In this document: positions 1 to 60,750 of the stretch, piece by piece | How positions within the stretch are numbered: position 1 is the stretch's first letter | Layout: each line of letters opens with the position of its first letter | Assembly: GCA_023245775.1 (NCBI GenBank) | Contig: JAHFJR010000002.1 | Coordinates: forward strand, 1,902-65,901 | Length of the DNA: 64,000 bases | Origin: Candidatus Peribacteria bacterium | Lineage (GTDB): Bacteria; Patescibacteriota; Gracilibacteria; Peribacterales; Peribacteraceae | Direction of reading: 5' to 3' | The notes under the pieces: generated by a model | What the model was told of the DNA's origin: nothing | Databases searched by the model: none | The model's input: the letters and a program-made list of their open reading frames with translations, nothing else | Position numbers and translations under genes: made by a program

Positions 1-79
1 TGGTGCCGCTGGGGGTCTGGCGGAGGGTGATGGGCTGGGTCTGGTAGCCGATGATGTCGACCTTATTGAGAGAGAACAT
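1..79 (-). CDS. ssb: single-stranded DNA-binding protein, first 26 codons only (gene runs off the left edge)
   Basis: Reverse complement of 1-79 reads ATG then MFSLNKVDIIGYQTQPITLRQTPSGT. This matches the conserved SSB OB-fold N-terminus (NKVxLIG...LRxTPSGT). It is too short to appear in the ORF track. Confidence 0.55.
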   Translation of the reverse strand, partial: MFSLNKVDIIGYQTQPITLRQTPSGT

Positions 80-306
80 CTCTGAGGGGGGAATGGAAGT
101 AGAGGAGGCCGCGGGGCCGAGTCCGGAAAGTCCGAACGTGAACGAACGTACACCTTCTCTTTTCTCCCTGCAAGAGAAACAGATTGAAGAAAATATTTTT
201 TGTTTTCCACTCCTACTTTTTTTGCGGTCTGTCGAGGCAGAGAAGATCGCTTCGCAGTACACTTTCACGTAACTCCGCGCTCAGAATTTTTTTCGCGCAG
301 CGATTC

Positions 307-3300
307 ATGATCAAGCGTCTCCTTCTCCTTCCTCTGGCCCTCGCCTCTCTCACCGTTGCCGTGACTGCGAGTGCAGACAATTTTCGTCCGAAGATGAGCC
401 GCCCCGAGAGCTATAAGGACATACTCTATGGGGTGGATGAGGTGCACAGAAACCTTGATTCGGTGCAGTGCGGCGGGTGGGTGGCGGGAGAACAGCAGGT
501 GGATGGAACGAGTGTGACGGGGGATGTGCCGCGGCCAAACAACGGAGACATCATCGATCTCCCAGGCCACCAGAACCCCGATCCTCTTGGCAATGCGAAG
601 ACCGGAGTTGGGGTCCGTGGAGAGTTCGCATTCCCCGACAGTGCGCGTGGGTACGATTCCGCATGTGATATCCATGAAGACCAGATCCAGGATCCAGACC
701 TCCAGAGACTCGGGATCGACCTGCAAATTCATGAAGACGGGAGTGTGGAAGCCGTTGCCGGCGACGGTCACATCGACATCAATCCCTTCCACTGGTGCCT
801 TCTCGATGATCGAGCCGACAAGGCGACGCCCATGTACTGCAAGAGACTCTTCGAAGCATGGAAGCAGATGTCAGAACTTGGAGATTTCTGTCGCGACATG
901 GAAGTGTGTCCCGGCCCCGTCTGCGAAGATCAAGAGATCTGTGATGATGAAGGATGTCACACCGAGAGTGTCTGCACGGACCAACCGTGTCGCACCGAGA
1001 ATATCTGTACCTCCATTCATCCTCCTATTCAGAGTACGTGTGACTGCGAAGCATTCGCTCCAGAGGAACGTGATTACTGTCCACCTCGTCCCGAGAAGAG
1101 GTACTGCTTCGATCCACAGTACACCTTCGTCTGCGAAGGGAGCAGTGCGGTGCAGGAGCCGGTGCACAGCATCCTCCAGCAGGATGAGTCCAATGATGTA
1201 ATTTCCACGACCGATCTGCCACCGCAACCACTCACGTGTCGCACGCCGTGGAAACCGAAGATCGATAACAAGATGACCGAGTGCCACTTCAATAAGATTT
1301 GCGAACCGGATATCTGTCACGATGAAACAATCTGTGGAGACGAGTGTCATACCGAGGAGAAATGTGAAGACGTGTGCCATGAGGAAGAGAAATGTGAAAA
1401 CGAGTGTCATACCGAGGAGAAATGTGAAGACGTGTGCCATGAGGAAGAAATCTGCGATGAGGATGGATGTCGTACCGAAGAAATCTGTGAACCTGAATGC
1501 CATGATGAAGAAATCTGTGAGGATGGATGTCGTACCGAAGAAATCTGTGAACCTGAATGTCATGATGAAGAAATTTGTGAGGAGGCGTGCCACGATGAGC
1601 AGTTCTGTACTCCTGGTCCCTGCTTCTACCAGGAAGTGACTGATGAAGAAGGAAGGCATGATGCGATCACTGCTTCGTACTACCGTCACTACGCGGGGGA
1701 TTTTTCGGACCTCGGTGTCTCTGTGAGGGCAGAGAGCGGGACAGGGACAGTGAAAACATGGAATCTCCGTGCCGAATGTTATGAGTATTACAAAGGTTCA
1801 GTGACGGATGAGGACACTGGTAACGGGAGCGGAGATTTCGATCCGAAGGACACGATCACGGGGGGGATGGATGACGCGCAGAATCACGAGCAGTGTGAGA
1901 TCGTCCTCGATGGTGCAGACCAAGAGCACCCCGAGAATCTCCAGTGGCCGGATGGCGATGGGCACGCACAGAAGGAGAATGTTCCAGCACACACCCAAAC
2001 GGGATCCGTGCGTGACGAACGGGTCGCACCCGATCCGTGGGTGACCGATAGCAGCACGAATCTCGCACTAACAGGGACCAAGAAAGACCGACATACGAGA
2101 TTCTATGATACGGACCTTGCGGGACTCTTTGGGTCCATCATTCCCGTCAAGCAGCGCGCGAGCGAGACGGTTGCCGATCACGCGCGAACAGATACCTTCG
2201 ACGATACCGATCACCGTGGGCTTGCGGGATACTGGGAAGCGCAGCAGAAGATCCTTCTGCAGATGGTTCGCGACCCCACTGTGCGCCTGATCATGCCTGC
2301 GCGGTTCCTCACCGGACTCGATGATAAGAACCCGCTCTACCAGTACGTACGCGGCATCGTTTCCAGATCTGATGGTATCGTGGAGCTCACGCTGCGCGGA
2401 GGTCCCGACGACCTCGGGAATGCGCTCGCCGCACTGCGCAGTAGCTACGTCTTACCGATCACCGAAGTGCCTATTCCGATTCTCCTTCCGCTCGTCTCCA
2501 TCGAGGATCTCGATCGATTGATCTTCCAGTGGCAGCAGTGGCAGGCTCAGGAAGAGAAGCAGGGCTCTGAGTTCGCTTCGCAGGCCGACCCACTCATCGA
2601 GAAGCTCCGTCACTACAAGGACATCATTCTCTCGGAGCGGAAGTTGCGTGGTGCTCTCAATAAGGAGGTGACGACACTCTTCGAGCCGATCCGCGTGTTC
2701 GATGAATTCATGGCGAAGTGGTACAAGGACAACACGGAGAAGATCAAGGAAGCTGCCGTACAGTCGAATCAGCGGAAACAGCTGAAGCGTATCTGGCGCC
2801 ATCTCCAGAACTCGATGCTGCAGGCGGACACATGCCAGTTGCAGTGGTGCTCGAATATGCGGTACTCGGTTCCGATCTACTCGCTCCTCGATGGCTGGTG
2901 GCAAGAGGAGGAGGCTGCTGCTGGGGACGCAAGGAATCTGGATTACGTTCCGCCAGACGATCTTCGCACTATCGAGTTCACGCCTCCGAAAGATCAACTG
3001 TACGATTTCTCATTCCTCGATCTTCCGAGAGGGCAGTTCAGGATCCCCGTCCTCTCTCCCACACAGGTGAAAGTGAACCTTCCTCTGCCACCCCAGTCGC
3101 GTTCTCCGGTCCAAAATCCTGAGGATTTCCCCGATCTCCCCTCCCTCCCCGATGCGTCGGTCTTCGATGGCTTCCCCGTGCCTGAGGTGCACCTTCCAGA
3201 GGAGAGAGTGCTCGAGGTAGAGGTAGAGGCGTCAGATCTCGGGCCCGTCAAGGAGGTGCTTCGTGCGTTCCGCCAAATCATCGACGGCACATCGATCGAT

Positions 3301-3864
3301 GATCAGATTGCGCAGGAGGAGAGCGAAGACAGCAACGGAGGGATCCTCGAAGACGAAGGTCCGTACGAACCTCCGTACGATCGCACCAGCATGCGCGGTG
3401 CGTACTGCCGCTTCGTACGCAGCATCTTGATTTCGCCCGATGCCAACGAAGAGAACCCCGGTGATGATCAGCATGGGGACCCCGAGAAGATCGTGCACGT
3501 CGAAGGGGACCTCAAGGAGCGTGTCGCACGCCTCTTCTCTCGGTGGATGCCGATCCTCCCAGAGGACCGGGCTGGCAGAACGGCCCGTCTGAACGAAGAA
3601 TTTCCAGATCCAGATGTCCCGCCCACCTGCAAGGAGGATGTGATCTGCGCCTTCCTCCTCGGCGAACGAACCACGATGGTACCGTGGAAACTCTTCTTCC
3701 CTGATCAGACCACGGACTTCACCGCCCTCCGCGAGAACATGAAGTCACAGACACTTCCTCAGACGGACGATGAGAATCCGTATCTCCATGCCCCCGTGTC
3801 TCTGCTCAAGCGCCTCTTCCCATCTATCGATCTCCCGATCACGATCGATCTCACGGTCCAATGA
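307..3864 (+). CDS. orphan exported protein, 1185 aa, with an acidic Cys/His-rich repeat region
   Basis: Long ORF. The internal ATG at 307 gives a signal peptide MIKRLLLLPLALASLTVAVTASA. There are dozens of Cys in an acidic context and no family I recognise. First gene of an overlapping operon. Confidence 0.8.
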   Translation: MIKRLLLLPLALASLTVAVTASADNFRPKMSRPESYKDILYGVDEVHRNLDSVQCGGWVAGEQQVDGTSVTGDVPRPNNGDIIDLPGHQNPDPLGNAKTGVGVRGEFAFPDSARGYDSACDIHEDQIQDPDLQRLGIDLQIHEDGSVEAVAGDGHIDINPFHWCLLDDRADKATPMYCKRLFEAWKQMSELGDFCRDMEVCPGPVCEDQEICDDEGCHTESVCTDQPCRTENICTSIHPPIQSTCDCEAFAPEERDYCPPRPEKRYCFDPQYTFVCEGSSAVQEPVHSILQQDESNDVISTTDLPPQPLTCRTPWKPKIDNKMTECHFNKICEPDICHDETICGDECHTEEKCEDVCHEEEKCENECHTEEKCEDVCHEEEICDEDGCRTEEICEPECHDEEICEDGCRTEEICEPECHDEEICEEACHDEQFCTPGPCFYQEVTDEEGRHDAITASYYRHYAGDFSDLGVSVRAESGTGTVKTWNLRAECYEYYKGSVTDEDTGNGSGDFDPKDTITGGMDDAQNHEQCEIVLDGADQEHPENLQWPDGDGHAQKENVPAHTQTGSVRDERVAPDPWVTDSSTNLALTGTKKDRHTRFYDTDLAGLFGSIIPVKQRASETVADHARTDTFDDTDHRGLAGYWEAQQKILLQMVRDPTVRLIMPARFLTGLDDKNPLYQYVRGIVSRSDGIVELTLRGGPDDLGNALAALRSSYVLPITEVPIPILLPLVSIEDLDRLIFQWQQWQAQEEKQGSEFASQADPLIEKLRHYKDIILSERKLRGALNKEVTTLFEPIRVFDEFMAKWYKDNTEKIKEAAVQSNQRKQLKRIWRHLQNSMLQADTCQLQWCSNMRYSVPIYSLLDGWWQEEEAAAGDARNLDYVPPDDLRTIEFTPPKDQLYDFSFLDLPRGQFRIPVLSPTQVKVNLPLPPQSRSPVQNPEDFPDLPSLPDASVFDGFPVPEVHLPEERVLEVEVEASDLGPVKEVLRAFRQIIDGTSIDDQIAQEESEDSNGGILEDEGPYEPPYDRTSMRGAYCRFVRSILISPDANEENPGDDQHGDPEKIVHVEGDLKERVARLFSRWMPILPEDRAGRTARLNEEFPDPDVPPTCKEDVICAFLLGERTTMVPWKLFFPDQTTDFTALRENMKSQTLPQTDDENPYLHAPVSLLKRLFPSIDLPITIDLTVQ
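1315..1607 (+). repeat. in-frame tandem array, 30-nt / 10-aa period (C-H/R-x-E-E-x-C-E-x-x), about 9-10 units
   Basis: 1341-1380 is identical to 1401-1440 (40/40). 1461-1499 is identical to 1521-1559 (39/39). Translation: CHTEEKCEDVCHEEEKCENECHTEEKCEDVCHEEEICDEDGCRTEEICEPECHDEEICEDGCRTEEICEPECHDEEICEEACHDEQFC. Confidence 0.9.
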
Positions 3865-4604
3865 AACTCTCTCGTCTCTCCATCGGCCTCCTCGCGAGCC
3901 TAGGCATCGTGATTACCTTCTTCACATCGAATGCGCGAGTCTCTAGCCAGACTTCGGCCTCGCCAGAACTCTGTCGAGCTCGGTTCATCGAGGAATTGGG
4001 AAAAGTACACGATACGTATCGTGCACACGTCTTCGGCGCGAGAGAAGGTGGAGACGACGGACTGGGTGTGTTGCTCTCCGGAGGTTCTGTATCAGGGGAT
4101 GCCATCGGCAAGGGCATCTTCGAGACGAAGGGTCGACTGAGCTCGGAACTCATCGAACCGATCGTCGAGAGCTATCGCGTCCTTCGTTGCCGGAGTATCG
4201 CGATCTGTAATGCGATGAAAGCGTCGAACAAGCAGGACGGTGAGACTCCGTTGACCATCGATACGCTCGGGTGTGCAGCGGAGACGATCGACAGATACGC
4301 AGAGTGCAGGAAGACGAAGGAGGACCTCACGATGGACATTCCACATCTCGTGCTCGAGTGTGGGCGCACCGTCGCTCGTTCGCTTGCAGCTGAGCGTGCG
4401 ACTCTTCGTCTCGCACTCTCCTACGACAGTGGGTACCGCGCTTCACTGCAGCTTGGGGGCATGATCGATTGGATGCAGGAGGATGCGCCAACAGCGGTGC
4501 TCGCTCCCCTGCAATCGATGGTCAACATGCTCGGGAAACTCCATGAGATCCCCTGTTTCATTGGTCAGTGTGATGACCCACGTCCTTCCACAATATCAGA
4601 ATGA
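3861..4604 (+). CDS. orphan exported/membrane-anchored protein, 247 aa
   Basis: The ATG overlaps the upstream stop (ATGA at 3861-3864). N-terminal hydrophobic segment LSIGLLASLGIVITFF. Confidence 0.7.
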   Translation: MKLSRLSIGLLASLGIVITFFTSNARVSSQTSASPELCRARFIEELGKVHDTYRAHVFGAREGGDDGLGVLLSGGSVSGDAIGKGIFETKGRLSSELIEPIVESYRVLRCRSIAICNAMKASNKQDGETPLTIDTLGCAAETIDRYAECRKTKEDLTMDIPHLVLECGRTVARSLAAERATLRLALSYDSGYRASLQLGGMIDWMQEDAPTAVLAPLQSMVNMLGKLHEIPCFIGQCDDPRPSTISE

Positions 4605-5470
4605 CACCGAAGCATCTTCCCACGGGCGCTACACGGCATCTCTGGTCCGTGTGGCAGCGGCATCAAGGACTGATCGTCGTGCTCACAGGTCTCAGTATTC
4701 TTGCTGGGTCTTCGCACTATTTTCTCTCAGCAGCTCTCCTTGATGGCTCTCCTGACGCAGGCTCGGGTTCGATGAGTAGCAGCGAAGAACTGCGCATCTG
4801 TGCATCACAAGGCACGATGTTCGATGGGATCACGAACCTCTCGACGGTTCTGGAGACGTTTCGACAGCGTGTGAGTGCGATCGTAGAGGAGCGTGAGGGG
4901 TACCTGCGTAACAGTGCACGGTGGACCTGCCTCCCTCTTGATGGACAGCAGGGAGCCAATGACGCACCGGCGCCGGCGATCCTCCGTGCGCTCGCTGATG
5001 AACTCCCCGGCTGGAGTGTGCGGACTCCCGATGGCAGTACGATGCCTCGCCCCGTCACGTTCGCGTCCTTCGCATCGATCCTGAGTGAATTCGAACGTGA
5101 GTACGAATGCAAATTATCCGAATTCAAAGAGGATGCCTTCCTCATTGTCTATGCCGATCAAGACCAAGCGACTCCCACGGGGATCAAGGCGATTCAGGCC
5201 GACTTCATCGCTCGAGCACCGGCGTTTCGGAGCTTGCAGGACATCGAACGACAACGTGCACGCATCGCCGTCGAACGGACGATCCAGGACGTGCGTTCCT
5301 ACGAGCTCAGTTACACCTATGCCAAGCAGCTCGTGTGTTTCCAGCGTGCGTCGCTCGACCTCAAGAATGAACTGAGTCTTCTGGCCGATACCGTCAGTTG
5401 CATGCCGAAGGTGTGGGATGCGCTCACGTCGCTCCATGACCCTCTCTCCTCCTCCAGCTCGTCCGAATGA
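4601..5470 (+). CDS. orphan membrane-anchored protein, 289 aa
   Basis: ATGA overlap at 4601-4604. One N-terminal TM segment (LIVVLTGLSILAGSSHYFLSAALL). Ser-rich C-terminus. Confidence 0.7.
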   Translation: MTPKHLPTGATRHLWSVWQRHQGLIVVLTGLSILAGSSHYFLSAALLDGSPDAGSGSMSSSEELRICASQGTMFDGITNLSTVLETFRQRVSAIVEEREGYLRNSARWTCLPLDGQQGANDAPAPAILRALADELPGWSVRTPDGSTMPRPVTFASFASILSEFEREYECKLSEFKEDAFLIVYADQDQATPTGIKAIQADFIARAPAFRSLQDIERQRARIAVERTIQDVRSYELSYTYAKQLVCFQRASLDLKNELSLLADTVSCMPKVWDALTSLHDPLSSSSSSE

Positions 5471-7305
5471 GACGACTCTCCCTCCGTACATCGGGCATGC
5501 TCCTCCTGCTCTCACCGCAGGTTGTCTTCGCTGCATCGACGTTCGATCTCTTCTGGGATGAGTCGAAATTCTCTCGTCCATCGGTGATACCCACACACCA
5601 GGTGATGCAGTTTGTGATCAATGAGATGCGACACTGGGAAGGCAGAGGGATCGTCATCGGTGAGGATGATATCAAAGCGGCGATGCAGATGGACCTTGGT
5701 ACGCTCTGCTTGAACAAAGTCGATGTGTCCGATCAGCCGCTGACGCATCTGCAGGAGATGGGGACTGAGGACACGGGATGCCTTGCCCTGCGCAAGGCGA
5801 TCCTCTCACTCCTCTTTAGTGAAAAAGAGGCCATGGAACTTGGAAATGATCTCCTGTCTGCTGCGAACGGTTCCGAACTCTCGATTGCCGACGAACCTCA
5901 CCGACTCCTGCGAGTCGGAGCACTCAGTCTGATCCTGAAGGAGATCTGGTCCGGCAAGGCTCTCGGGCTGATCCCGTGGGATACAGGCCCCGATCTCCAG
6001 AGGAAGGTGGATGATCTCGATGACAGCCTTCTCGCACTCACGAGCGAGGAACTTGACGCCGTGATTCTCCGTTTCCATTACGGCTACTTCCGTGATCAGA
6101 GAGAGCAGGATCCACGCTTTTCAATGGTCGGACTTCCCGTAGTCGATGCGCTGCAGCATCTCGCTGATGAGCTCGGTATCACTGGGGATCCGAAGGCGAT
6201 CGGCGAATTTACAACTCCGGGCCCTGGTGCTGGAATGAGGACTCCGAATGTCGCTCTCTGGGCGCGCAAGGATGACATCGGATTGGGATGGATCCACCCA
6301 CCACATTTCTCGCGTCTTCAGATCAGAGAGGCGGATCAGTATCCGGTGCTTGCCGACGAACCGGGAGCCACGACGCTCGCGTACCCATTCAACTACGGTG
6401 GATCGACCCCTTCGTCTCCTCCCGTGAAGTCACCGCTCTGTAGTCGTACCGTTGCACGATATGGGTATCTCTGCCGACGTGTTCCAGTGTCTCATTCAGA
6501 GTGCCAGAATGATGAAGAAGGCAAAATTTCCCTCGTCGAATGCACCGATGAAGAGGAGGTGACCGAGACGAAGCAAGGCCCCAGCATCTGTCTGGGGCTC
6601 GACAACCTGTACATCGATGACGGCACTCCTCTCGTCGAAGACGAGAATCCTGGGCAACTCCATCCAGACTTGACGCCTGCCGACACTGCACATCTCTGTT
6701 CGCCAGAGACGAAGATTCTGTATCAGGACGACATCAGCGCGCATGCGTGTTACATCGGGCTCTGTCTCCTCCAGTCGATGAGCGGCCACACGTTGATCCC
6801 GAATCGCAATCCTGTCCTCACGAATGAGACGACGTCTCCGTACGCCTCGTGTGTTCGTGCCGATCCACAGTTGGGTCTGTACAGTGAGGCTGCGCACGAT
6901 TCCCCCTATCCTCTCCCCGACTACATCGGGCATCAGCTCGTGCAGGAGTTCGATCGCGAGTACTGCCAGAAGACGGGAGACGCTCCGCGTCCGGTGCTCG
7001 GAGACTGTGCCTTCTTCAGTAACCAAGTCACCGCTCAGCCGAGCTACTTGCAGCACACGGTCACGAATACCCTGGTGAACGAGGCCGCATCTGTAGCGAG
7101 GAATCAGGAGAATTTCCTCTCACTCGCCACCGCCATCGGGCAGCGTGTCTCCATCGATCAGACGGTCGTTCTCGAGAGAAAACTCTTCGCGGGTCTTGCG
7201 GCGTTCATGCAGCAGATGGCCGACCTCCTCTCGGAACTGAAGCGTGCACCGATCACAACGACCGCCTGTCCGTGGACGGGCCCTTTCCAAGTGTTCGGAT
7301 CCTAA
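5467..7305 (+). CDS. orphan exported protein, 612 aa
   Basis: ATGA overlap at 5467-5470. Signal-peptide-like N-terminus MRRLSLRTSGMLLLLSPQVVFAAS. Contains an acidic Cys-containing segment. Confidence 0.7.
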   Translation: MRRLSLRTSGMLLLLSPQVVFAASTFDLFWDESKFSRPSVIPTHQVMQFVINEMRHWEGRGIVIGEDDIKAAMQMDLGTLCLNKVDVSDQPLTHLQEMGTEDTGCLALRKAILSLLFSEKEAMELGNDLLSAANGSELSIADEPHRLLRVGALSLILKEIWSGKALGLIPWDTGPDLQRKVDDLDDSLLALTSEELDAVILRFHYGYFRDQREQDPRFSMVGLPVVDALQHLADELGITGDPKAIGEFTTPGPGAGMRTPNVALWARKDDIGLGWIHPPHFSRLQIREADQYPVLADEPGATTLAYPFNYGGSTPSSPPVKSPLCSRTVARYGYLCRRVPVSHSECQNDEEGKISLVECTDEEEVTETKQGPSICLGLDNLYIDDGTPLVEDENPGQLHPDLTPADTAHLCSPETKILYQDDISAHACYIGLCLLQSMSGHTLIPNRNPVLTNETTSPYASCVRADPQLGLYSEAAHDSPYPLPDYIGHQLVQEFDREYCQKTGDAPRPVLGDCAFFSNQVTAQPSYLQHTVTNTLVNEAASVARNQENFLSLATAIGQRVSIDQTVVLERKLFAGLAAFMQQMADLLSELKRAPITTTACPWTGPFQVFGS

Positions 7306-7307
7306 CC

Positions 7308-9098
7308 ATGCGTCGTTTCCTCCCTCTCCTCATTGGCTGTTCACTCTTTCTGCCTCAGACAGTGTCTGCGGAGGCTCTCTCTGCGTGGGTCCAGCGTGTG
7401 CTCGACCGCACAGATCAGGCGCTCTCACTCGCAGAGGGGCTCCCTGGCTCCGACCCTGTCCCTACGGTGATCGATCAGATCAAGAACAATCTCTCGGTGG
7501 TGCGAGATGCGAAGAGCGCCGTGTGGGATTTCGCATTGGAAGGGGAGTTCCTGAAGGAACGGACGATCTGTTTTCAGAGTGATCGGTTCCTCTTCCTCGA
7601 TAAGATTCATACAGTCGAGGATGCGCTGACAACTGCTATCCAAGCAGACAAGACAGCATCTGCCTCCAGACTCCTGGATATCTATACCTTCCTCCTCGAG
7701 GCGTACCGTTCCTTCCTGCGTGGGTCCATCGATCCTTCCTTTGCAGATTCTCGCTTACGGTTCACCTACAGTTTCGAGCTTCCACTCGGAGACGCCAGCG
7801 CTCCCGATCGAGAAGAAGAGACGGATTCCGATGAACCACTGTGTCCATACACGACGGATTACGGTCCACATTCCATCGCCTACATCCCGCTTGCGAACGG
7901 CGAAGGGTCCGTCGAGGGCAGCTCGCTGTTCGATGTGAAGAGTTACGGTTGTGACAGGGACAAGGTCCAGCAGATCCTCGATCACCTGCCTGACCCCATT
8001 CCTTCCGATGCGTCGGAGGAGACGAGAGCACAGATCGATGCGATCCATGCAGAGGCGTCAGATCTGATCGACTTTCTGGACACATCGAATGCACTCGCGT
8101 CGGATCTGTACACACTCGTACGTGATGCCCTCTTCAATATCGAGAGTACGATTGCCATCATCACCGGCAAACCCGCGCCGACGGCATCGGAGGATCCTGT
8201 TGCTGCCCCATCGCACGATGCGAGGGAAGGATGCCTCCGTCCACCTGCCCCTGATTCCAGTCGCGGAGACTCTGGGGATATCGAGAGTATTCTCGCCTCA
8301 TTCCCCGACTACTTTGATGCGAAGAATCTGCACATGGATCCGCTCACGCTCTCCCTCACCTTCGATCCCCCTTCAGACCTGACACTTCCGATCGGTGTGC
8401 TCTTTCGTTCCACGGACGATTTCTTTTCAGTGATGCCGAGTGCGCAGGGCTTGAGTCGTTCATTTTCGGAGCGAAAAGGGACGACAGGGTTCGACCGACC
8501 CTTCGAGCGTGCCCTCACGGATCATCCCCAAAATGACCTGATGATCAGTTGGATCTGGCGGTGGATCCAGCGAGGCGTACTCGGTTCTGTCTCGGCGGGT
8601 ATCGATCGCGAGACGAGTTTCATCGAGTCGATCAGTCGCGATGCCTACGAGCGTACGCTGGAAGCAGTGCGGCCGCTTGAGAATGCAGCACAGGCACTGA
8701 GTGATGTGACCACAGAGGAGTTGCCGAAGAAGTACATTCCATCGCTCGTGTACTTCCTTCGACGGTCATGCATCGATGGCCACTGTCGTGAGACGCTCGA
8801 CGCTGTAGGAAAACGCATCTTCAATCCCTACTGCCATCCGTACGTGTCGGGTCTGTATGCCAATAACCGCGTTGCGGAGAAGTGCTTCTGTCAGCCGAAG
8901 GATGATGACCATCAAGATGGCCTCGACCTTGCAGGATGTGATGTCAACGAGGACGATCCGAATTCTGGGAATGAGGATTGCCAATTCTTCAAGAAGTTTT
9001 GCTCGGAACACTTCAACGCCGACGATTATAGGAGTCTTGATGAGCAAGAGGGCGCACCGATTCTGTGCGGAGAGACGTCGTCTGCCTCTTCCGAATAG
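7308..9098 (+). CDS. orphan exported protein, 596 aa
   Basis: The ATG at 7308 lies 2 nt after the upstream TAA. Signal peptide MRRFLPLLIGCSLFLPQTVSAEA. Acidic Cys-rich C-terminus. Confidence 0.7.
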   Translation: MRRFLPLLIGCSLFLPQTVSAEALSAWVQRVLDRTDQALSLAEGLPGSDPVPTVIDQIKNNLSVVRDAKSAVWDFALEGEFLKERTICFQSDRFLFLDKIHTVEDALTTAIQADKTASASRLLDIYTFLLEAYRSFLRGSIDPSFADSRLRFTYSFELPLGDASAPDREEETDSDEPLCPYTTDYGPHSIAYIPLANGEGSVEGSSLFDVKSYGCDRDKVQQILDHLPDPIPSDASEETRAQIDAIHAEASDLIDFLDTSNALASDLYTLVRDALFNIESTIAIITGKPAPTASEDPVAAPSHDAREGCLRPPAPDSSRGDSGDIESILASFPDYFDAKNLHMDPLTLSLTFDPPSDLTLPIGVLFRSTDDFFSVMPSAQGLSRSFSERKGTTGFDRPFERALTDHPQNDLMISWIWRWIQRGVLGSVSAGIDRETSFIESISRDAYERTLEAVRPLENAAQALSDVTTEELPKKYIPSLVYFLRRSCIDGHCRETLDAVGKRIFNPYCHPYVSGLYANNRVAEKCFCQPKDDDHQDGLDLAGCDVNEDDPNSGNEDCQFFKKFCSEHFNADDYRSLDEQEGAPILCGETSSASSE

Positions 9099-9112
9099 GA
9101 TAAGCTGTTGCT

Positions 9113-12100
9113 GTGAAATCCTCCGACTTCGTCCATCTCCACTGTCACAGTACCTTCTCGCTCCTCGAGGCGGTGCCTTCCCCCGAAGAGATCATTCTCC
9201 GTGCCAAAGAACTTGGCCAGACTGCGGTGGCGCTTTCGGACAAGGGCTATACGTACGGCCTCATCGAGTTCTATAAAGCAGCGAAGGATCATGGCCTGAA
9301 GGCGATTCTCGGACTCGAGACCTACGTCGCCGCTCGCACGAGACATGACAAAGAGAGCTCCAGCGATACCCGTCGCTCTCCATTGGTCCTCCTCGCAGAG
9401 ACCGAAGAAGGGTACCACAACCTCCTCCAGCTCGCGACGAAAGCTGCGCTCGAGGGCATGTACTACAAGCCGCGTGTCGATACCGAACTTCTGAAACAGT
9501 ACGGCAAGGGGCTCATCGCCCTCACGGGGCCGTTGAGTGGTGCGATCCCGCAAGCGGCACTCGCCGGAGATGATCAGCGAGTGAAGATGCTCCTTGAGCA
9601 GTATCGATCTTTCTTTGGTTCTGAGAATGTCTACTTCGAGCTGAATGATCTACCGAATGTGCCAGGACAATCCGAAACCAATCAGCAACTCATCCGCTAT
9701 GCGAAAGAATTCTCGGTGCCGCTCGTGGCCACGTGCAACAGTCACTACTGCAGACCGGAAGACAGCGAAGCGCACGATGTCCTCCTGTGTATCCAGAAGA
9801 ACGCAAGCGTCACCGACACGAGTCGATTTTCGATGATGGGGAGCGATTTCTCGATGCGTCCGTTCGAGGAGATGGAGACAGCATTTGCCCACGTACCCGA
9901 GGCACTGGAGAATACGCGGGTCATCGCGGATCGGTGCAGCGTGAAGATTCCCTTCGGTCAGTACAAGATCCCCAGTTTCCCCGTGCAGGAAGGGCAAACG
10001 GAAGAGTCGCTCCTGAAGAGTCTGTGTGACACAGGTCTCGAGCGGCGGTATGGGGCGATCCTGAAAAAAAGCCCCGAGCGCACACAGGAAATTCAGTCTC
10101 GTCTTGCCTACGAACTCGAGGTCATCAAGAAAATGGGATTCTCTGGATACTTCCTCATCGTTGCTGACTTCATCTGCGAAGCGAAGAAGCGCGGCATCAC
10201 CGTCGGTCCAGGGCGCGGATCGGCAGCGGGATCCATCGTGAGTTACGTGCTCGATATCACCACACTTGATCCGCTAGAGCACGGTCTTCTCTTCGAGAGA
10301 TTCCTCAACCCCGAGCGTATCAGCATGCCGGATATCGATATCGACTTCGCTGACACACGTCGAGATGAAGTCCTCGAATACGTACGTGGGAAGTACGGTG
10401 CCGATCGCGTCATCCAGATCTGCACGTTCGGGACGCTCGCGGCACGCGCTGCCGTGAAAGATGTTGGCCGTGCATTCGGCGTGTCCTTCGCCGAGATGAA
10501 TGCGCTTGCAAAATTGATTCCAGATCGCCCCGGTACGACCCTCGAGGAGGCTCTCAGCACCGACGAACTGCAGCAGGAAATTGGTAGCAACGAGACCTAC
10601 CGCAAGATTCTGGAGATTGCACTGAAGCTCGAAGGCAAGGCGCGTCACGTGTCGGTCCATGCATGTGGTGTCGTCATCACACCCGAACCGGCAGTGCAGT
10701 ACACCGCGCTCCAGCGTGCGCCGAAGGATGAGAACACCATCATCACCCAGTACGACGCGAAGCCGCTCGAATCGCTCGGCCTTCTGAAGATGGACTTCCT
10801 CGGCCTCAAGAACCTGACGATCATCCAGACGGCTCTCCTCATCATCGAGCGTATGCACAGCGTGAAGATCGACATGGCAACGATCCCAACGAACGACAGA
10901 AAGACGTTCGAACTCCTCTCGCGCGGCGAAACGACGGGGGTGTTTCAACTCGAGTCCGCTGGGATGCGGCGGTATCTGAAGCAACTGAAGCCTACTGCCT
11001 TCGACGACATCACCGCCATGGTCTCGCTCTATCGGCCTGGTCCGATGGACAAGATCCCCGACTACATCAAGTGCAAGAATGGCCAGAAGGATGTCTCGTA
11101 CCTGCATCCCGATCTCGAGTCGATCCTGAAGCCGACGTACGGAGTGGGCATCTATCAGGAGCAGATTCTGGAGATGGCGCGCGTCTTTGCGGGTTTCTCC
11201 CTCGGGGAAGCCGACTTGCTGCGTCGGGCCATCGGCAAGAAGATCAAGAAGGAACTGAATGCACAACGTGAGAAATTCATCCGCGGAGCGGTCGCTCGTG
11301 GATACAAGGAGAAACTCGTGACGACGATGTTCGACGACGTCATCACACCGTTCGCGGGATACGGGTTCAACAAATCACACGGAGCGTGTTATGCGCGCAT
11401 CGCGTACGAAACAGCGTACCTGAAGGCGCACTATCCGACGGATTTCATGGCCGCACTCCTCAGTAGTGAGGACGGTGACACCGACCGCATCAGCATCGAG
11501 ATCGAAGAGGCGCGCGCGATGGGGATCGCGGTGCTGCCGCCGGATATCAACGAATCCCTCGCGCACTTCACGTCGCTCGAGGGCGGCAAGATCCGCTTCG
11601 GCCTCCTCGGCATCAAGGGAGTGGGCGAGAGTTCCATCCGTCAGATCCTGGCCATTCGCGACGGAGTAGATGGGAAACATCGGGCACCTTTTACGAGCAT
11701 CGAAGATCTCGCCATGCGCGTGCCGAGTAAACTGCTCAACAAGAAATTGCTGGAGTCTCTGGCGAAGTCAGGAGCCTTCGACTCACTCGGAGAACGAGCG
11801 ATGCTTGTCTCCCAGTATGACAAGATCGCCGACTGCAGCAAATCCACGTGTGACAGAGGCGCTTCGCAGGCCGATCTCTTCGAGTCTCTTGGGGGTGGCT
11901 CTGCGAATGCTTCCATCGCCTTCGATCCTACGGATCCCGCAAGTCCCCACCAGAAATTGATGTGGGAGAAGGAGACGCTGGGGCTCTATGTCAGCAGCCA
12001 TCCGCTTGCAGGACTCAGGAAGTACATCAGCAAGAAGGCGAGACTCATCGAGACACTCACGGGTGATGACATCAACAGGAAGGTGACGGTGGCTGGCATC

Positions 12101-12937
12101 AGAGAGCAGATGAAACTGATCCATACGAAGAAGGGGGACACGATGGCGATCATCACGATCGAAGATCCCACCGGTCGCATGGAGGTGACGCTGTTCCCGC
12201 GAGTCTATGCCCAGTTCAAAGATCTCCTCGAGAAGCCAGATTCCTTCCTCGTACTCGCAGGCATGCTCGATATGCGTATGGGGCAGCCACAGTTGAAAGC
12301 GGAGGCGATCAAACGTGTCTCCCTCGAGACGATGGTGCAGAAGGCCAAGCAGGAAGGCATGTTCCATGAAGAGGAGACGAAGAACTGGAGTAGTGCCGGC
12401 AGTCGTCGCCATGGAGAAGAGGAGATCCCAGCAACGGTAGAGACGGGCGCGGATGAAGAGATCGCTCCCACCATCGTTCCAAGGTCTCCTGTCATGGCAT
12501 CCCCCTCAGAGAGCCCTCTCGGCCCGCTCGCGGCGTGGATTCAGAGCGGCATGCAGACAGAAGAATCCCTGAAGAAGGTCGGGCTGGAAGGATATGTAGT
12601 GAAAGACGGAAAGTTGAAAGTGCCTGCCTGCCGGACAGGCAGGGAAAGTGAGGATGGAACTGTCAACCTTCCACTGTCCCCGTCCGACCGCATCCGGGCG
12701 GGCACTGTCCACAAGCAGTTTTCCATTTCCATCCACACCATCACACTCCCATCCCGCGCACCGAAACAACTCCTCCTCGATGTGAAGTCGATCTTCGAGA
12801 CATTCCCCGGCTCCGAGAAGGTGCAGCTGAAGATCGGAGAGAAAGATGTGCCGGTGGGACTCACGATCACCATGTCTCCCTTGCTTGAAAAACGCATCGA
12901 AGAGGCGGTGAAGAAGTACGGAGAAGTGGAGAGTTGA
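9113..12937 (+). CDS. dnaE: DNA polymerase III alpha subunit (1274 aa)
   Basis: PHP-domain N-terminus FVHLHCHSTFSLLEA. Conserved pol III alpha blocks (GPGRGSAAGS, PDIDIDF, LKMDFLGL, GYGFNKSH). OB fold near the C-terminus. GTG start 14 nt after the upstream stop. Confidence 0.95.
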   Translation: MKSSDFVHLHCHSTFSLLEAVPSPEEIILRAKELGQTAVALSDKGYTYGLIEFYKAAKDHGLKAILGLETYVAARTRHDKESSSDTRRSPLVLLAETEEGYHNLLQLATKAALEGMYYKPRVDTELLKQYGKGLIALTGPLSGAIPQAALAGDDQRVKMLLEQYRSFFGSENVYFELNDLPNVPGQSETNQQLIRYAKEFSVPLVATCNSHYCRPEDSEAHDVLLCIQKNASVTDTSRFSMMGSDFSMRPFEEMETAFAHVPEALENTRVIADRCSVKIPFGQYKIPSFPVQEGQTEESLLKSLCDTGLERRYGAILKKSPERTQEIQSRLAYELEVIKKMGFSGYFLIVADFICEAKKRGITVGPGRGSAAGSIVSYVLDITTLDPLEHGLLFERFLNPERISMPDIDIDFADTRRDEVLEYVRGKYGADRVIQICTFGTLAARAAVKDVGRAFGVSFAEMNALAKLIPDRPGTTLEEALSTDELQQEIGSNETYRKILEIALKLEGKARHVSVHACGVVITPEPAVQYTALQRAPKDENTIITQYDAKPLESLGLLKMDFLGLKNLTIIQTALLIIERMHSVKIDMATIPTNDRKTFELLSRGETTGVFQLESAGMRRYLKQLKPTAFDDITAMVSLYRPGPMDKIPDYIKCKNGQKDVSYLHPDLESILKPTYGVGIYQEQILEMARVFAGFSLGEADLLRRAIGKKIKKELNAQREKFIRGAVARGYKEKLVTTMFDDVITPFAGYGFNKSHGACYARIAYETAYLKAHYPTDFMAALLSSEDGDTDRISIEIEEARAMGIAVLPPDINESLAHFTSLEGGKIRFGLLGIKGVGESSIRQILAIRDGVDGKHRAPFTSIEDLAMRVPSKLLNKKLLESLAKSGAFDSLGERAMLVSQYDKIADCSKSTCDRGASQADLFESLGGGSANASIAFDPTDPASPHQKLMWEKETLGLYVSSHPLAGLRKYISKKARLIETLTGDDINRKVTVAGIREQMKLIHTKKGDTMAIITIEDPTGRMEVTLFPRVYAQFKDLLEKPDSFLVLAGMLDMRMGQPQLKAEAIKRVSLETMVQKAKQEGMFHEEETKNWSSAGSRRHGEEEIPATVETGADEEIAPTIVPRSPVMASPSESPLGPLAAWIQSGMQTEESLKKVGLEGYVVKDGKLKVPACRTGRESEDGTVNLPLSPSDRIRAGTVHKQFSISIHTITLPSRAPKQLLLDVKSIFETFPGSEKVQLKIGEKDVPVGLTITMSPLLEKRIEEAVKKYGEVES
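12623..12703 (+). repeat. palindromic repeat modules embedded in frame in the dnaE 3' region
   Basis: cctgcctgccggacaggcaggg (12623-12644) is followed by a ccttccact motif. The 27-nt string tccccgtccgaccgcatccgggcgggc (12677-12703) recurs identically at 13394-13420. Confidence 0.8.
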
Positions 12938-12993
12938 GTTCTGCAGCGCGCCCAGAAAGGGCGCTCCAAAATACAGTGATAGAGAGATAAAAT

Positions 12994-13016
12994 GGAGCGG
13001 GCATTCTTGCCCGCGT
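12994..13016. terminator. GC hairpin (gcgggc-attctt-gcccgc) with flanking T/A runs; likely dnaE terminator
   Basis: The 23-nt string ggagcgggcattcttgcccgcgt is identical to 48072-48094. It is followed by cgttcgattttt on the plus strand. Confidence 0.45.
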
Positions 13017-13041
13017 CGTTCGATTTTTCCTTTTCTTCGTT

Positions 13042-13047
13042 CATACT
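13042..13047 (+). promoter_or_regulatory. -10-like hexamer CATACT, 6 nt upstream of the tsaC ATG
   Basis: Part of the recurrent TAnnnT-N6/7-ATG arrangement. No Shine-Dalgarno motif. Confidence 0.4.
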
Positions 13048-13053
13048 GCAGTC

Positions 13054-13755
13054 ATGCACATTCTCCCCGAATCTCCGGAAGCCATTGATGCTGCTCTGAC
13101 CGTCCTGCAGTCGGGCGGCATCGTCATCCATGCGACGGAAACCTGCTACGGCATTGCGTGTGACCTTACGAATCCAAAAGCCGTTGAGAAATTATTCAGG
13201 GTGAAGAAACGACCACCCGATCAGCCCGTCAGCGCGTTATTCCCATCGATGTCCAAGGCTGAGGAGTATGTCGACTTCTCTCCGCGAGCCCTAGAGTTAG
13301 CCAAAAAGTATCTGCCGGGTCCACTGACGATCGTGCTTCCAAGCAAAGCAGATTCCCCCAACCTCTTCGTCATGCCCTCTCCCCCTGCCCCTCTCCCCGT
13401 CCGACCGCATCCGGGCGGGCCGTTCCGGGAGAGGGGTGACTCGTTCCCCTCTCCCCGAAGGGGGGAGGAGTTAGGGGTGGGGGCGACGATCGGCATTCGC
13501 ATTTCCTCCTTCCCTCTCGCGCAGATTCTGGCTTCGCGTTTTGGAAAACCGATGGCGACGACCTCAGCCAATCTTCATGGGCTGCCGAATCCTTACAGTG
13601 TTGCCGATATCCAGTTGCAGTTAGCAGACCAACAGCATCTTCCGGATCTCTTCATCGATAGCGGATCGCTCCCGATCGCTCCTCCATCGACCGTGATCGA
13701 AGTCATCGGTCAAGAGCTTAGAGTCCTGCGAAAAGGGGAAATTGCTATATATTAG
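13054..13755 (+). CDS. tsaC: L-threonylcarbamoyladenylate synthase, Sua5/YrdC/YwlC family (233 aa) with an internal repeat-derived insertion
   Basis: IHATETCYGIACD, KKRPPDQPVS, LPGPLTIVL and TSANLHG are YrdC-domain motifs. Confidence 0.85.
   Translation: MHILPESPEAIDAALTVLQSGGIVIHATETCYGIACDLTNPKAVEKLFRVKKRPPDQPVSALFPSMSKAEEYVDFSPRALELAKKYLPGPLTIVLPSKADSPNLFVMPSPPAPLPVRPHPGGPFRERGDSFPSPRRGEELGVGATIGIRISSFPLAQILASRFGKPMATTSANLHGLPNPYSVADIQLQLADQQHLPDLFIDSGSLPIAPPSTVIEVIGQELRVLRKGEIAIY
13373..13485 (+). repeat. composite palindromic repeat insertion in frame inside tsaC (about 37 codons)
   Basis: It lies between LPGPLTIVL... and ...IGIRISSFP and encodes PSPPAPLPVRPHPGGPFRERGDSFPSPRRGEELGVG. 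It contains the 27-nt string shared with dnaE and the hairpin cccctctcccc-gaa-ggggggagg followed by ttaggggtgg. Confidence 0.8.
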
Positions 13756-18141: not shown

Positions 18142-18408
18142 ATGTTTACAGTCTATGTGCTTCGTAGCCAAAAGCGAGAATATTGGTATGTAGGACTCAC
18201 TGCCAATCTTGAGCGTCGTGTTACTGAGCATCAGGATGGCAGAGAGCGTACGACAAAACCTTATCGTCCGTTTGATCTTGTACACACTGAAAATTTTACA
18301 ACTCGACCTGAAGCTCGAAAGAGAGAAAAATACTTAAAGTCAGGCTCTGGAAAAGAATGGTTAAAAACCCCTGCCGGGGTGGCGAAATGGCAGACGCATC
18401 AGCCTTAG
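18142..18408 (+). CDS. small GIY-YIG nuclease superfamily protein (88 aa)
   Basis: FTVYVLRSQKREYWYVGLTANLERRVTEHQ...ARKREKYLKSGSGKEW is a GIY-YIG (UPF0213-like) pattern. The 3' end overlaps tRNA-Leu. Confidence 0.75.
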   Translation: MFTVYVLRSQKREYWYVGLTANLERRVTEHQDGRERTTKPYRPFDLVHTENFTTRPEARKREKYLKSGSGKEWLKTPAGVAKWQTHQP

Positions 18409-18458
18409 GAGCTGACGGGAGCAATCCCATGGAGGTTCAAGTCCTCTCCCCGGCACCA
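18373..18458 (+). tRNA. tRNA-Leu (anticodon TAG), long variable arm, CCA encoded
   Basis: Manual cloverleaf. Acceptor GCCGGGG/CCCCGGC. Anticodon stem TCAGC/GCTGA with loop CTTAGGA. Variable arm cgggagcaatcccatg. T-arm GGAGG-TTCAAGT-CCTCT. Confidence 0.85.
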
Positions 18459-18497
18459 CCGATTGTCGCGTTCTCCCGCCTCGCCTATGCTAGGCGT

Positions 18498-19847
18498 ATG
18501 AAGAGAGCGATAGGATCAAGACGTGCTGTCATCGCATGGGTAGGTGCTGTGGTGCTCATCCTCGTCTCCCTTCTCACGTATCAATCTTTCCGGCAGGGAT
18601 ACAACATTCCCGTCTGGCAGGTCGACCACTTTGACCATGCTGATTTTCGTTACGTTGCAGAGATCTTCTGGGGAGAACCTCATGACCTTCGTACCTATCA
18701 ACCAGATTTCTCGGAGGATTGGGGTCGCTACTTGGACGCCGTCCCCTTCCGGGGCATCGGTGTTGGGACGTACTACCTGACACTCCGTGCGTTGATCGGC
18801 TTCGTGAATCCTGGGGTCGCAGCGGACCCCATACGCTTAGGTGTGTTCATCGCTTGGTCGATGAAGCTTCTGCTCGCTTCTGCATACGCGATCTTCTTTG
18901 GGGTCTGCCGTCGTCGCGTTGGCACGCGCCTCGCTCTCCTCTGTCTCGCTCTCCTTCTGTTTCCTTGGAAAACGTGGATCCTCATCGAAGAGATGCTCGT
19001 CGAGCCGCTCGTCCGGATTCTCTTCGTCCTAGCGATGAGCGTCCTTCTCTCCATCCACGAGTCTCGTGGACGGCTTCGCCTTGGCGCTGCGCTCTTCCTC
19101 TTCCCCTTCCTCCTCGCTGCACACCTCAAAGCTCCGTGGATGTTCTATCCCCTCCTCATTCTTCCGGCGATCGTCCTTCGTCTGCATGCGGAGAAGCTCT
19201 CCCTCAGGCATGCACTCCCAGCAGTCGCTCTGACCCTCTGCGTGCCGCTTACGCTCCTCCTCGTCAATGTTCTTTGGTGGCAGGATCTCACACTCTCTCC
19301 TGGGGCGGGACTCCATGCACAGTTCAAGACGGGGGAGTACACCTCTTCGCTCTGCAGATCCCCCACTCCTCTGGTGACTGTTTTCTGTAACAGAACGACT
19401 AAGCTCAACAGTTGGTGGAACGTGTACATGGGGCCGGATGCACTTCCCGAAAATTACCGCGCACTCGATCGTGGTGTTCTTCCCTACATCCTCCATACAC
19501 CACAGCGGATGATCACCGATGCCTTCGATGGACTTCGGGTTGCGAGCAATGTCCCCGAAGGCGCTATGGATATTCTCCCGTATGGGGCTTCGCTCGTGAT
19601 CCTGCTTCTGGATATTTCTACATGGATTCTTCTTCTCGTTGGACTCTTCCAAAAAGAAACCATCCTCCTCTCAGCCGCAGGTCTTGGCCTCTGGATCATC
19701 CCAGCAATCGGTGCAATCTTCGCATTGTACGATCCACGCTATCATCGACCGATGGCTGGCATTCCTCTGATTCTTGCGATTCTGATCGCAGTGAAGCTGT
19801 ATGGAATATGGAAGAAGAATGGAAAGCAGCAGAAAAAATCGCTGTAG
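18498..19847 (+). CDS. polytopic integral membrane protein (449 aa), possible GT-C-type glycosyltransferase
   Basis: Many hydrophobic segments. The ATG at 18498 lies after the tRNA and is preceded by TATGCT-N6. The family assignment is tentative. Confidence 0.6.
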   Translation: MKRAIGSRRAVIAWVGAVVLILVSLLTYQSFRQGYNIPVWQVDHFDHADFRYVAEIFWGEPHDLRTYQPDFSEDWGRYLDAVPFRGIGVGTYYLTLRALIGFVNPGVAADPIRLGVFIAWSMKLLLASAYAIFFGVCRRRVGTRLALLCLALLLFPWKTWILIEEMLVEPLVRILFVLAMSVLLSIHESRGRLRLGAALFLFPFLLAAHLKAPWMFYPLLILPAIVLRLHAEKLSLRHALPAVALTLCVPLTLLLVNVLWWQDLTLSPGAGLHAQFKTGEYTSSLCRSPTPLVTVFCNRTTKLNSWWNVYMGPDALPENYRALDRGVLPYILHTPQRMITDAFDGLRVASNVPEGAMDILPYGASLVILLLDISTWILLLVGLFQKETILLSAAGLGLWIIPAIGAIFALYDPRYHRPMAGIPLILAILIAVKLYGIWKKNGKQQKKSL

Positions 19848-21998: not shown

Positions 21999-22352
21999 TT
22001 AGATGGAGAGAGTGGAGGACATCTGCGATGTAATCGATTGCAGCTGGATTTCGTCTTCTCCGGAAAGTTCCTGTTCCAGCGACTGCATCGCGGTGCGTTT
22101 GTAGGTGTGAAATTCTTGCATCCATCGATGCATGAATTCCTCGGATCTTTGGTCATATTCCGCGTACGCTGCATGGAAGCGCGCAGCCAGCTCTTCTCTC
22201 TCTTCAGGGCTCGCTGTGGTAGCCTCACGTTTCGTCCGCTCAAGATTTTCAGTGAGCAGTGCCGGCTCGATGTCGATCATGATGGAGTCATACAGCTCAG
22301 GGCCCGTCAGGAGCGGCAGGTCCAGCGTGGAGAAGGCAGGGGGGGTCGGCAT
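21999..22352 (-). CDS. hypothetical protein (117 aa)
   Basis: ORF directly abutting the 699-aa gene. The start at MPTPPAF was chosen because a TATAAT (22378-22383, minus strand) lies inside the longer version. Confidence 0.5.
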   Translation of the reverse strand: MPTPPAFSTLDLPLLTGPELYDSIMIDIEPALLTENLERTKREATTASPEEREELAARFHAAYAEYDQRSEEFMHRWMQEFHTYKRTAMQSLEQELSGEDEIQLQSITSQMSSTLSI

Positions 22353-22436
22353 GGGAGTGAGATGAATTTTTCTAAGTATTATAGCAGAGAACGAAGTTTC
22401 GTACAAGAATCCCCGTGCAGCACTCTTCTGGATGTT

Positions 22437-22445
22437 TGGTACGAT
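22437..22445 (+). promoter_or_regulatory. extended -10 TGgTACGAT, 6 nt upstream of ATG 22452
   Basis: TG at 22437-22438, TACGAT at 22440-22445. Confidence 0.4.
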
Positions 22446-22451
22446 GCGCTC

Positions 22452-60666: not shown

Positions 60667-60750
60667 ACGCTGAAGTTAGATACCCCTCGTCTCCTCTGCT
60701 ACAGTGCCGTACTGTTGATTTCGGAGTCCCCTGCTCCCGTTCTCCACTCT

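Follow-up and report, generated by a model that had tools for sequence, protein, structure and literature searches.

A Conserved Five-Gene Cluster of Predicted Exported Proteins in Peregrinibacteria

The Locus and Its Gene Junctions

The Peregrinibacteria are uncultured, and their envelope and lifestyle are without experimental knowledge. The DNA analyzed here is a stretch of 64,000 nucleotides (nt) from a Candidatus Peribacteria bacterium (assembly GCA_023245775.1, contig JAHFJR010000002.1, positions 1,902 to 65,901, forward strand), which is called the window below and is numbered from its first letter. Near its beginning, five consecutive open reading frames (ORFs) lie on the plus strand and are named P1 to P5 in 5'→3' order (Table 1). 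An original prediction, made from the letters alone, had described them as a translationally coupled operon of orphan exported proteins directly upstream of dnaE, and had suggested that the products form an extracytoplasmic assembly. The coordinates and the lengths of the five ORFs were confirmed.

The first three junctions are ATGA overlaps of start and stop codons at 3861–3864 (P1/P2), 4601–4604 (P2/P3) and 5467–5470 (P3/P4). The P4/P5 junction reads TAA-CC-ATG and leaves a 2-nt gap at 7306–7307, and 14 nt (9099–9112) lie between the stop codon of P5 and the GTG of dnaE; all these values are exactly as first stated. The same layout was surveyed at 95 internal junctions of 25 short-form loci, that is, loci with a P4 of about 600 amino acids (aa) like that of the window. 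The first three junctions had a median distance of −4 nt and the P4→P5 junction one of +1 nt; 48 of the 95 junctions measured exactly −4 nt and 87 were 20 nt or less, which supports the claim of a single tightly coupled unit. The overlap of stop and start codons between neighbors on the same strand is conserved from the window to its relatives. In the window, a search at distances of up to 21 nt from the five starts found no Shine–Dalgarno motif. Neither a sigma-70-like consensus site anywhere in 1–13300 nor a convincing terminator interrupting the five-gene block was found. This arrangement suggests that the five genes are co-transcribed and translationally coupled, and the divergent region upstream of P1, judged by position alone, would hold the promoter. 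The GC content of the five genes (0.535–0.579) is inside the range of the remaining window, and no further copies (paralogues) of the five proteins occur within the window.

The flanking genes differ in how closely they are tied to the cluster. The minus strand of the window from 79 to 2 encodes MFSLNKVDIIGYQTQPITLRQTPSGT, which is nearly identical with the SSB N-termini of three related loci (L001, L003, and L005), and an SSB gene (PF00436) lies upstream on the opposite strand in all relatives. Between P5 and dnaE lie 4–3467 nt (median 90 nt); a gap of no more than 20 nt occurs in just 2 of 17 loci, so the 14 nt of the window are unusual. Furthermore, dnaE is displaced in three loci (L003, L010, and L024), and in a fourth, L035, other genes take its place downstream. 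Of the adjacency to dnaE that had been pointed out, the spacing in the window stands, and the general tie to dnaE is weak. Because the internal junctions are short and the dnaE gap is variable, the tight unit is the five genes, and dnaE is a neighbor and not a member. The window dnaE is 66–81% identical to that of relatives, and in the window genome it may be read through from the operon across the 14-nt spacer. According to independent gene calls, the wider block reads murG-ppiase-gltX-x-murB-ssb, the five genes, and then dnaE-sua5-nrdR-aspS.

Table 1. Positions of the genes and features of the five-gene locus in the window.
Feature	Position	Strand	Remarks
ssb, 5' end	1..79	−	Divergent from the cluster; conserved upstream neighbor
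Divergent intergenic region	80..306		227 nt; presumed operon promoter region
P1	307–3864	+	ATG start, 1185 aa; a longer TTG ORF begins at 184
P1 signal peptide	residues 1–23	+	Sec type (heuristic); N-terminal part beta-rich
P1 tandem repeat	1333..1583 (residues ~343–426)	+	Tandem Repeats Finder; period 30 nt = 10 aa, CExxCHxEEx
P1 most conserved core	2215..3138 (residues 637–944)	+	Alpha/beta unit, then three long helices
P2	3861–4604	+	247 aa
P3	4601–5470	+	289 aa
P4	5467–7305	+	612 aa; start in the database copy 10 codons further on
P4 insert site	6580..6651 (residues ~372–395)	+	~150–250-aa Cys-rich HExxH...E domain in longer relatives
P5	7308–9098	+	596 aa; a GTG ORF begins at 7272
dnaE (DNA polymerase III alpha)	9113..12937	+	GTG start; frequent downstream neighbor, outside the conserved coupled unit

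Distribution and Conservation of Gene Order

The five ORFs are conserved at the protein level in more than 30 genomes. A word-indexed search found 67 full-length homologues of P4 with 38–56% identity, and P1 has 29 homologues; all the named ones belong to Candidatus Peribacteria or Peribacteraceae. A pattern scan with one genome per species gave 26 loci, each under a title naming Peribacteria, Peribacterales or Peregrinibacteria. An exhaustive search with the P4 profile, covering 1.84 billion cluster representatives, matched 227 clusters at E ≤ 1e-3. About 26 of these are short-form, and a far larger second tier has 780–900 aa, the named members of which are likewise Candidatus Peregrinibacteria or Peribacteraceae. 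The description of the proteins as orphans, in the sense of proteins without relatives, therefore had to be given up, since the families span the Peregrinibacteria.

The order P1-P2-P3-P4-P5 and the strand are the same in all fetched loci that are long enough (tblastn). Four distant loci of the second tier (L033, L034, L036, and L037) keep this order too, with ssb upstream on the opposite strand, and hidden Markov models of all five families match the expected genes in the first two of them. The conserved synteny in related genomes that the original prediction had proposed to look for was thus found, and orthologues scattered over the genomes were not. One departure is known. The distant genome GCA_947085695.1 (locus L035, 5860–14175) carries a four-gene version in which P2 is not detectable, and a tetratricopeptide repeat protein, a ferredoxin, and an ABC ATPase follow downstream in place of dnaE.

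The complete genome of Candidatus Peribacter riflensis contains genes _963 to _967 (1030, 279, 263, 821, and 521 aa) between ssb (_962, minus strand) and dnaE (_968) (Anantharaman et al., 2016, PeerJ, PMC4736985), and these were equated with P1 to P5 from their sizes, their order, and the genes on either side rather than from sequence. They are annotated merely as hypothetical and stand outside that paper's table of 20 cysteine-rich genes (PMC4736985). No description of the five-gene cluster was found in full-text searches of the literature. Taken together, the data best support a core operon that is vertically inherited and, among named members, confined to the Peregrinibacteria. An origin from a prophage, a mobile element or an island was considered and rejected, given the normal composition, the fixed chromosomal site, and the lack of phage families.

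Selection and Invariant Cysteines

The five proteins are under strong purifying selection. The ratio of nonsynonymous to synonymous substitution rates (dN/dS) was 0.05–0.15 for all five and 0.05–0.07 for dnaE in three closer genome pairs, with dS close to saturation in two of the three. Mean pairwise identity over 17 genomes is 39–46% for each of the five, as against 76% for dnaE, and the distance matrices of the five remain correlated once dnaE distance is regressed out (partial r 0.68–0.82).

Invariant cysteine columns number 12 in P1, 8 in P2, 5 in P3, 12 in P4 (alignment of 52 sequences), and 10 in P5, which makes 47 in total. The residues that are invariant in both tiers are mainly Cys, Pro, Trp, and Gly, and no catalytic constellation is recognizable among them. 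Genes for DsbB and two DsbA-like proteins are present in the class, which makes extracytoplasmic disulfide formation plausible, and the five proteins may contain disulfides. In the window, P1 to P5 have 48, 8, 5, 14, and 14 cysteines. The clustered cysteines that had been reported for the products are indeed present; in P1, they come mostly from the repeat at 1333–1583, which was found in 0 of 28 homologues, and to that extent they do not describe the family.

As a side observation, P1, P2, P4, and P5 each contain one invariant or near-invariant C-x4-C pair: C843-C848 (CQLQWC) in P1, C232-C237 (CFIGQC) in P2, C428-C433 (CYIGLC) in P4, and C488-C493 (CIDGHC) in P5. The PCFIGQCD of P2 resembles the long-form P4 consensus LCYxGQCxE. 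The C-x4-C pair may be a structural or interaction motif common to the four proteins.

Export Signals

Export signals were judged with a hydrophobicity and charge heuristic of our own, which was run on the window proteins and on 23–26 orthologues of each. The N-termini of P1, P2, P4, and P5 have the features of Sec signal peptides, with 1–3 Lys/Arg, a hydrophobic core, and a small-x-small site; the core starts at residue 4–11 in the window proteins and at a median of residue 4–8 in the orthologues. The N-terminus of P3 is built in another way, with a long tail rich in Lys/Arg (median 4.5), a hydrophobic segment from about residue 23, and then a Gly/Ser-rich stretch, and it reads as a predicted N-in (type II) signal anchor. 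Each protein keeps its pattern in its 23–26 orthologues. The claim that every product begins with a signal peptide or a transmembrane segment was thereby supported in the window and beyond it, and the claim that all five are acidic also held, with isoelectric points of 4.45, 5.68, 5.24, 4.75, and 4.46 for P1 to P5.

Signals for other routes of anchoring or assembly were looked for in the same proteins. A lipobox ([LVI][ASTVI][GAS]C) occurs in at most one of the 23–26 orthologues per family, and the 'LIGC' of the window P5 is not conserved. None of the five has an LPxT[GASN] motif or a C-terminal hydrophobic window, and a regular-expression search of the first 40 residues found no class III signal of type IV pilins or pseudopilins (G↓F/M-T-L-I-E). 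The C-termini of P2, P3, and P5 are rich in Ser (…STISE, …SSSSSSE, and …SSASSE at about 4580–4601, 5440–5467, and 9070–9095). Such tails recur in many orthologues, some as long poly-Ser, and may be linkers or sites of O-glycosylation.

Features of the Single Proteins

In P1, the near-invariant residues shared by both tiers are concentrated in the most conserved core, where the predicted local distance difference test (pLDDT) of the AlphaFold2 (AF2) model is about 80–90. The whole P1 model has a mean pLDDT of 60.6, with confident parts at residues 110–280 and 640–1010, the latter including helices at 732–849. Between these parts lies the tandem repeat, in which 60-nt super-units are 93–96% identical and seven CX3CH motifs occur. 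Residues ~201–240 and ~325–440 of P1 are missing from all 28 homologues, the alignment occupancy across residues 321–440 is 0.04–0.29, and CX3CH occurs in 0 of the 28; the repeat is accordingly judged to be a recent, genome-specific expansion. The repeat is probably strain-variable and might serve as a metal-binding site or as a disulfide-stacked spacer. Since no other genome has the repeat, haem binding by it was rejected as a feature of the system as a whole, and CxxCH haem motifs of c-type cytochromes number zero in the five proteins.

P2 has a signal peptide or an N-terminal anchor, eight invariant cysteines, and the C-terminal motif IPCFIGQCD. P3 has its hydrophobic segment at residues ~21–47, five invariant cysteines, and an exported domain that ends in SCMPKxWDxxTSxHD. 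Most P3 orthologues contain a six-cysteine insert (FCC...C...C...C...C), which the window copy does not have (~5179, between residues 193 and 194). This insert is also missing in L003 and L029, and a two-cysteine remnant is left in L013 and L025. The P3 cysteine total is 5 in the window and 11 elsewhere, an odd number both ways.

P4 consists of a signal peptide, an all-alpha N-terminal domain (~40–290), a cysteine-rich middle, and a C-terminal helix of 65 residues that closes with ACPWTGPF. In its AF2 model (mean pLDDT 67.9), the N-terminal domain and the C-terminal helix are confident, so that long helices appear in both AF2 models. P5 has a signal peptide, a mature N-terminus ALSxWVQ, and, near the C-terminus, the motifs RSCxDGHC and NPYCHPYVSG.

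Searches for a Known Identity

No known identity was found for any of the five. Pfam and NCBIfam gave nothing at E ≤ 1 or at the curated cut-off, with ARPC4 (11.9 bits) and PRK01842 (13 bits) as the best scores, and Pfam searches of 29 P1 and 52 P4 homologues one by one gave scattered single matches with E > 0.01. PHROGs and PADLOC gave zero matches for the five proteins. Profile searches (hmmsearch) against the PDB, made with alignments of 23–65 sequences for all five families and for long-form P4, gave nothing below E 0.1; the best values (E 0.15–0.75 for the five families) went to coiled-coil proteins (SNAP-25, keratin, EsxB, STIM1, and syntaxin). Foldseek against the PDB reached best E values of 5.4 for the P4 model and 2.4 for the P1 model, and against BFVD, where the P4 model alone was searched, it gave no match. 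The first reading, in which no known family was recognized, agrees with these profile searches of Pfam, NCBIfam, and the PDB and with the fold searches of P1 and P4. The cluster is unmatched by known families or systems with the methods used, and remote homology may yet emerge.

Two further candidates were tried and rejected. The first was paralogy among the five, for which hhalign of the ten pairs gave at best a probability of 40–51% (P4 vs P5) over short stretches. The second was a lytic transglycosylase in the N-terminal domain of P4, suggested by a resemblance of E..W...G...GLCQ to the SLT motifs; there was no SLT match in Pfam or the PDB, and the residues are not invariant.

A Proposed Membrane-Tethered Envelope Complex

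The reading that we favor, which we hold about as probable as its opposite, is that the products form a disulfide-stabilized complex of the envelope, in which four subunits are secreted by Sec and the fifth is anchored in the membrane. A single transcript of the five genes would start in the ssb-proximal intergenic region, and termination–reinitiation at the overlapping stop and start codons would give near-fixed ratios of the products. P1, P2, P4, and P5 would be exported by Sec and their signal peptides cleaved, while P3 would be kept in the membrane by its N-terminal signal anchor, which is followed by the Gly/Ser linker. Outside the cytoplasm, the invariant cysteine frameworks would be oxidized by the DsbA/DsbB-type machinery that the class encodes. 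The long helices of P1 and P4, and probably of other subunits, would then pack into a membrane-tethered hetero-oligomer, on which the insertion-tolerant sites (P1 ~201–240 and ~325–440; P4 ~375–395) are likely exposed. Such a complex would behave like a housekeeping part of the envelope, which might serve as a scaffold, surface structure or processing platform, and not like a strain-variable adhesin.

Several points weigh against it. The four-gene version in L035, without P2, means that a five-part fixed stoichiometry is not universal. The export signals come from our heuristic and not from SignalP or DeepTMHMM. The correlation among the distance matrices of the five proteins could stem from rate saturation alone. 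Of the five proteins, only P1 and P4 have AF2 models, and these are moderately confident (pLDDT 61 and 68), so that the lack of a fold match is weak evidence. Lastly, no function can be read from the five sequences.

Two known kinds of surface system resemble the cluster in part. S-layer proteins, including those with SLH domains, are acidic and exported, as P1 to P5 are; P1 to P5, however, contain no SLH domain and have 47 invariant cysteines, whereas cysteine is typically scarce in S-layer proteins. The csc clusters of the monoderm Lactobacillus plantarum are likewise lineage-conserved clusters of co-oriented genes for exported proteins without an assigned function, for which a surface complex was inferred (PMC1534035). 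They differ in that there is no sequence relation, that the five proteins are without LPxTG/sortase anchoring, and that a single cluster per fetched locus, at a fixed site, stands against many paralogous clusters.

A bolder form of the proposal is that the five proteins are an unrecognized extracytoplasmic machine of new folds and a defining core feature of Peregrinibacteria, which would match the neighboring replication genes in how well position and order are conserved. It would serve either an envelope function for which other bacteria use different proteins or the obligate cell–cell association suspected for this phylum, and its ancestral form would have had an Atp23-like zinc-protease subunit, since then repeatedly inactivated or lost. 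We regard this proposal as tentative and, on balance, rather doubtful.

Attachment and Protease Readings

An unlikely alternative is that the five proteins are a set of adhesins for attachment to a host or to other cells, in the manner of the cysteine-rich exported proteins described in Peribacteria. Those proteins mostly contain 5–11% Cys and average 1655 aa (Anantharaman et al., 2016). They show weak Myxococcus Cys-repeat or pappalysin-like signals, are strain-variable, and lie mostly in a 14-gene cluster elsewhere, and attachment has been proposed for them (PMC4736985). P1 to P5 resemble them in belonging to the same organisms, in their signal peptides, raised cysteine content, and presumed extracellular location, and in having no assigned function. 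They differ in a lower Cys content (1.7–4%), in strong conservation, and in the lack of a match to the Myxococcus Cys-rich repeat DUF4215 (PF13948) in the five window proteins, from which FG-GAP, SLH, and LPxTG signatures are also absent. As an aside, the P5 of the distant locus L036 has one precomputed match to DUF4215 that is rated 'weak.'

The recently expanded, genome-specific repeat in P1, TSP_3 calcium-binding repeats in two P4 relatives, and a divergence about twice that of dnaE would all suit adhesins. They are opposed by the dN/dS values near those of dnaE, by the single cluster per fetched locus, always at the same chromosomal site, and by the absence of the cluster from the 20 cysteine-rich genes listed for riflensis (PMC4736985). 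A possible attachment role is thus weakened by selection nearly as strict as that on dnaE and by variability that is confined to a few insertion sites.

Another reading starts from the longer relatives of P4. The inserts of long-form P4 lie between profile positions ~370 and ~391 and have 12–13 cysteines each; an example is found in L033 at ~11207–11783 (residues ~402–594 of protein P0118). An intact motif hhxHE(L/V/M)xHAxQxC was seen in 57 of 94 inserts, against a degraded one in the other 37; 55 of those 57 also have CCxxExx[AGSP], the E of which follows the E of HExxH by a median of 33 residues, the distance seen in gluzincins. When isolated inserts were compared with Pfam, 3 of 10 matched Peptidase_M76 (E 2e-4 to 0.024), below the threshold and centered on the motif, and DUF6782, YgjP-like, M91, and eCIS core were matched once each; the scores were 15–21 bits, as against a curated cut-off of 25.2. 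HExxH occurs in 0 of 52 short-form P4 proteins and in none of the five window proteins. From these comparisons, the domain is taken to have been deleted in the window's clade, and the ancestral P4 may have been a zinc peptidase.

The cluster would then be an extracellular zinc-protease system. P4, ancestrally Atp23/M76-like, would act on envelope proteins or on those of prey, either processing or degrading them, with the remaining four proteins as substrates, scaffolds or maturation factors; in the window's clade, the scaffold alone would be left. We consider this reading as improbable as the attachment set. The motif in 57 of the longer relatives, with its second element in 55, and the Peptidase_M76 matches speak for it. 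Against it, all Pfam scores are below their cut-offs, the motif is degraded in more than a third of the inserts, the PDB offers no match for long-form P4, and none of the 52 short-form P4 proteins has the domain, although the operon remains under purifying selection there. Since short-form P4 is without the domain, the function retained in the window's clade cannot depend on peptidase activity. Long-form P4 shares with M76 (Atp23) the sequence HE(L/V/M)xHAxQxC followed by CCxxExxA, a cysteine-rich domain, and the sub-threshold matches. It differs in that the domain is not in the P4 of the window or its clade, that scores stay below the cut-off, and that the motif is degraded in ~40% of inserts. 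Atp23 is an enzyme of the mitochondrial intermembrane space and is not known to have a multi-subunit operon context.

Less Probable Explanations

A known envelope machine that has changed past recognition, such as the periplasmic parts of the divisome or elongasome, pilus-associated proteins, or ring components of a secretion system, is a quite unlikely identity for the cluster. The genes murG and murB stand in the extended neighborhood, proteins of the Candidate Phyla Radiation (CPR) are often highly divergent, and the models are of only moderate quality, all of which would fit such a machine. But the oppositely oriented ssb separates murB from the cluster, the PDB profile searches found nothing below E 0.1, and Foldseek found nothing for P1 and P4. 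The five proteins also lack a pilin-type signal, and the operon has no ATPase and no polytopic membrane partner.

Still less probable is that five secreted proteins with separate functions have nothing in common but a promoter. The five show no paralogy among themselves and P2 is dispensable in L035, as independent proteins would allow; the order, the overlaps, and the presence of the five are conserved down to ~30% identity, and their rates are matched, which speaks against independence. A role in DNA replication or DNA uptake, suggested by the ssb and dnaE that flank the cluster in most genomes, is unsupported and highly improbable, because all five products are exported by our heuristic, the dnaE gap is variable, dnaE is displaced at three loci and absent downstream in L035, and the wider block (gltX, murB, sua5, nrdR, and aspS) is merely a conserved housekeeping region.

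Significance and Other Features of the Window

The five genes are an exported module of ~8.8 kb in a genome of ~1 Mb, retained by all relatives examined and under selection almost as strict as that on the DNA polymerase. The cluster is among the clearest 'dark matter' targets of the phylum, with five new families, a taxonomic marker, and candidates for metaproteomics, cryo-electron tomography, and reconstitution, and the HExxH domain of the longer relatives offers a first biochemical handle. Conserved hypothetical operons are not rare in CPR genomes, and 'new' here means unmatched by a known family or system with the methods used, not a demonstrated new mechanism.

Some observations concern the envelope more broadly. 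Locus L033 carries an LpxC-family gene (PF03331) at 1–871 on the minus strand, a few kb upstream of its five-gene cluster, which is odd for a presumed monoderm member of the CPR; the annotation table of Candidatus Peribacter riflensis has neither lpxC nor bamA. The window itself also encodes an SLH-domain protein (21819–24116) and a DUF4215 protein (28518–30326), envelope types that have already been noted for Peribacteria.

A second unexplained block of ~6.2 kb consists of the ORFs at 57004–60666 (1220 aa) and 60715–63201 (828 aa), which have no Pfam match. The first encodes an acidic product without an N-terminal signal, and the product of the second opens with hydrophobic segments. Furthermore, a tRNA-Leu gene (anticodon TAG) at 18373–18458 lies inside the mechanically called ORF 18357–19847, the 5' end of which is probably spurious.

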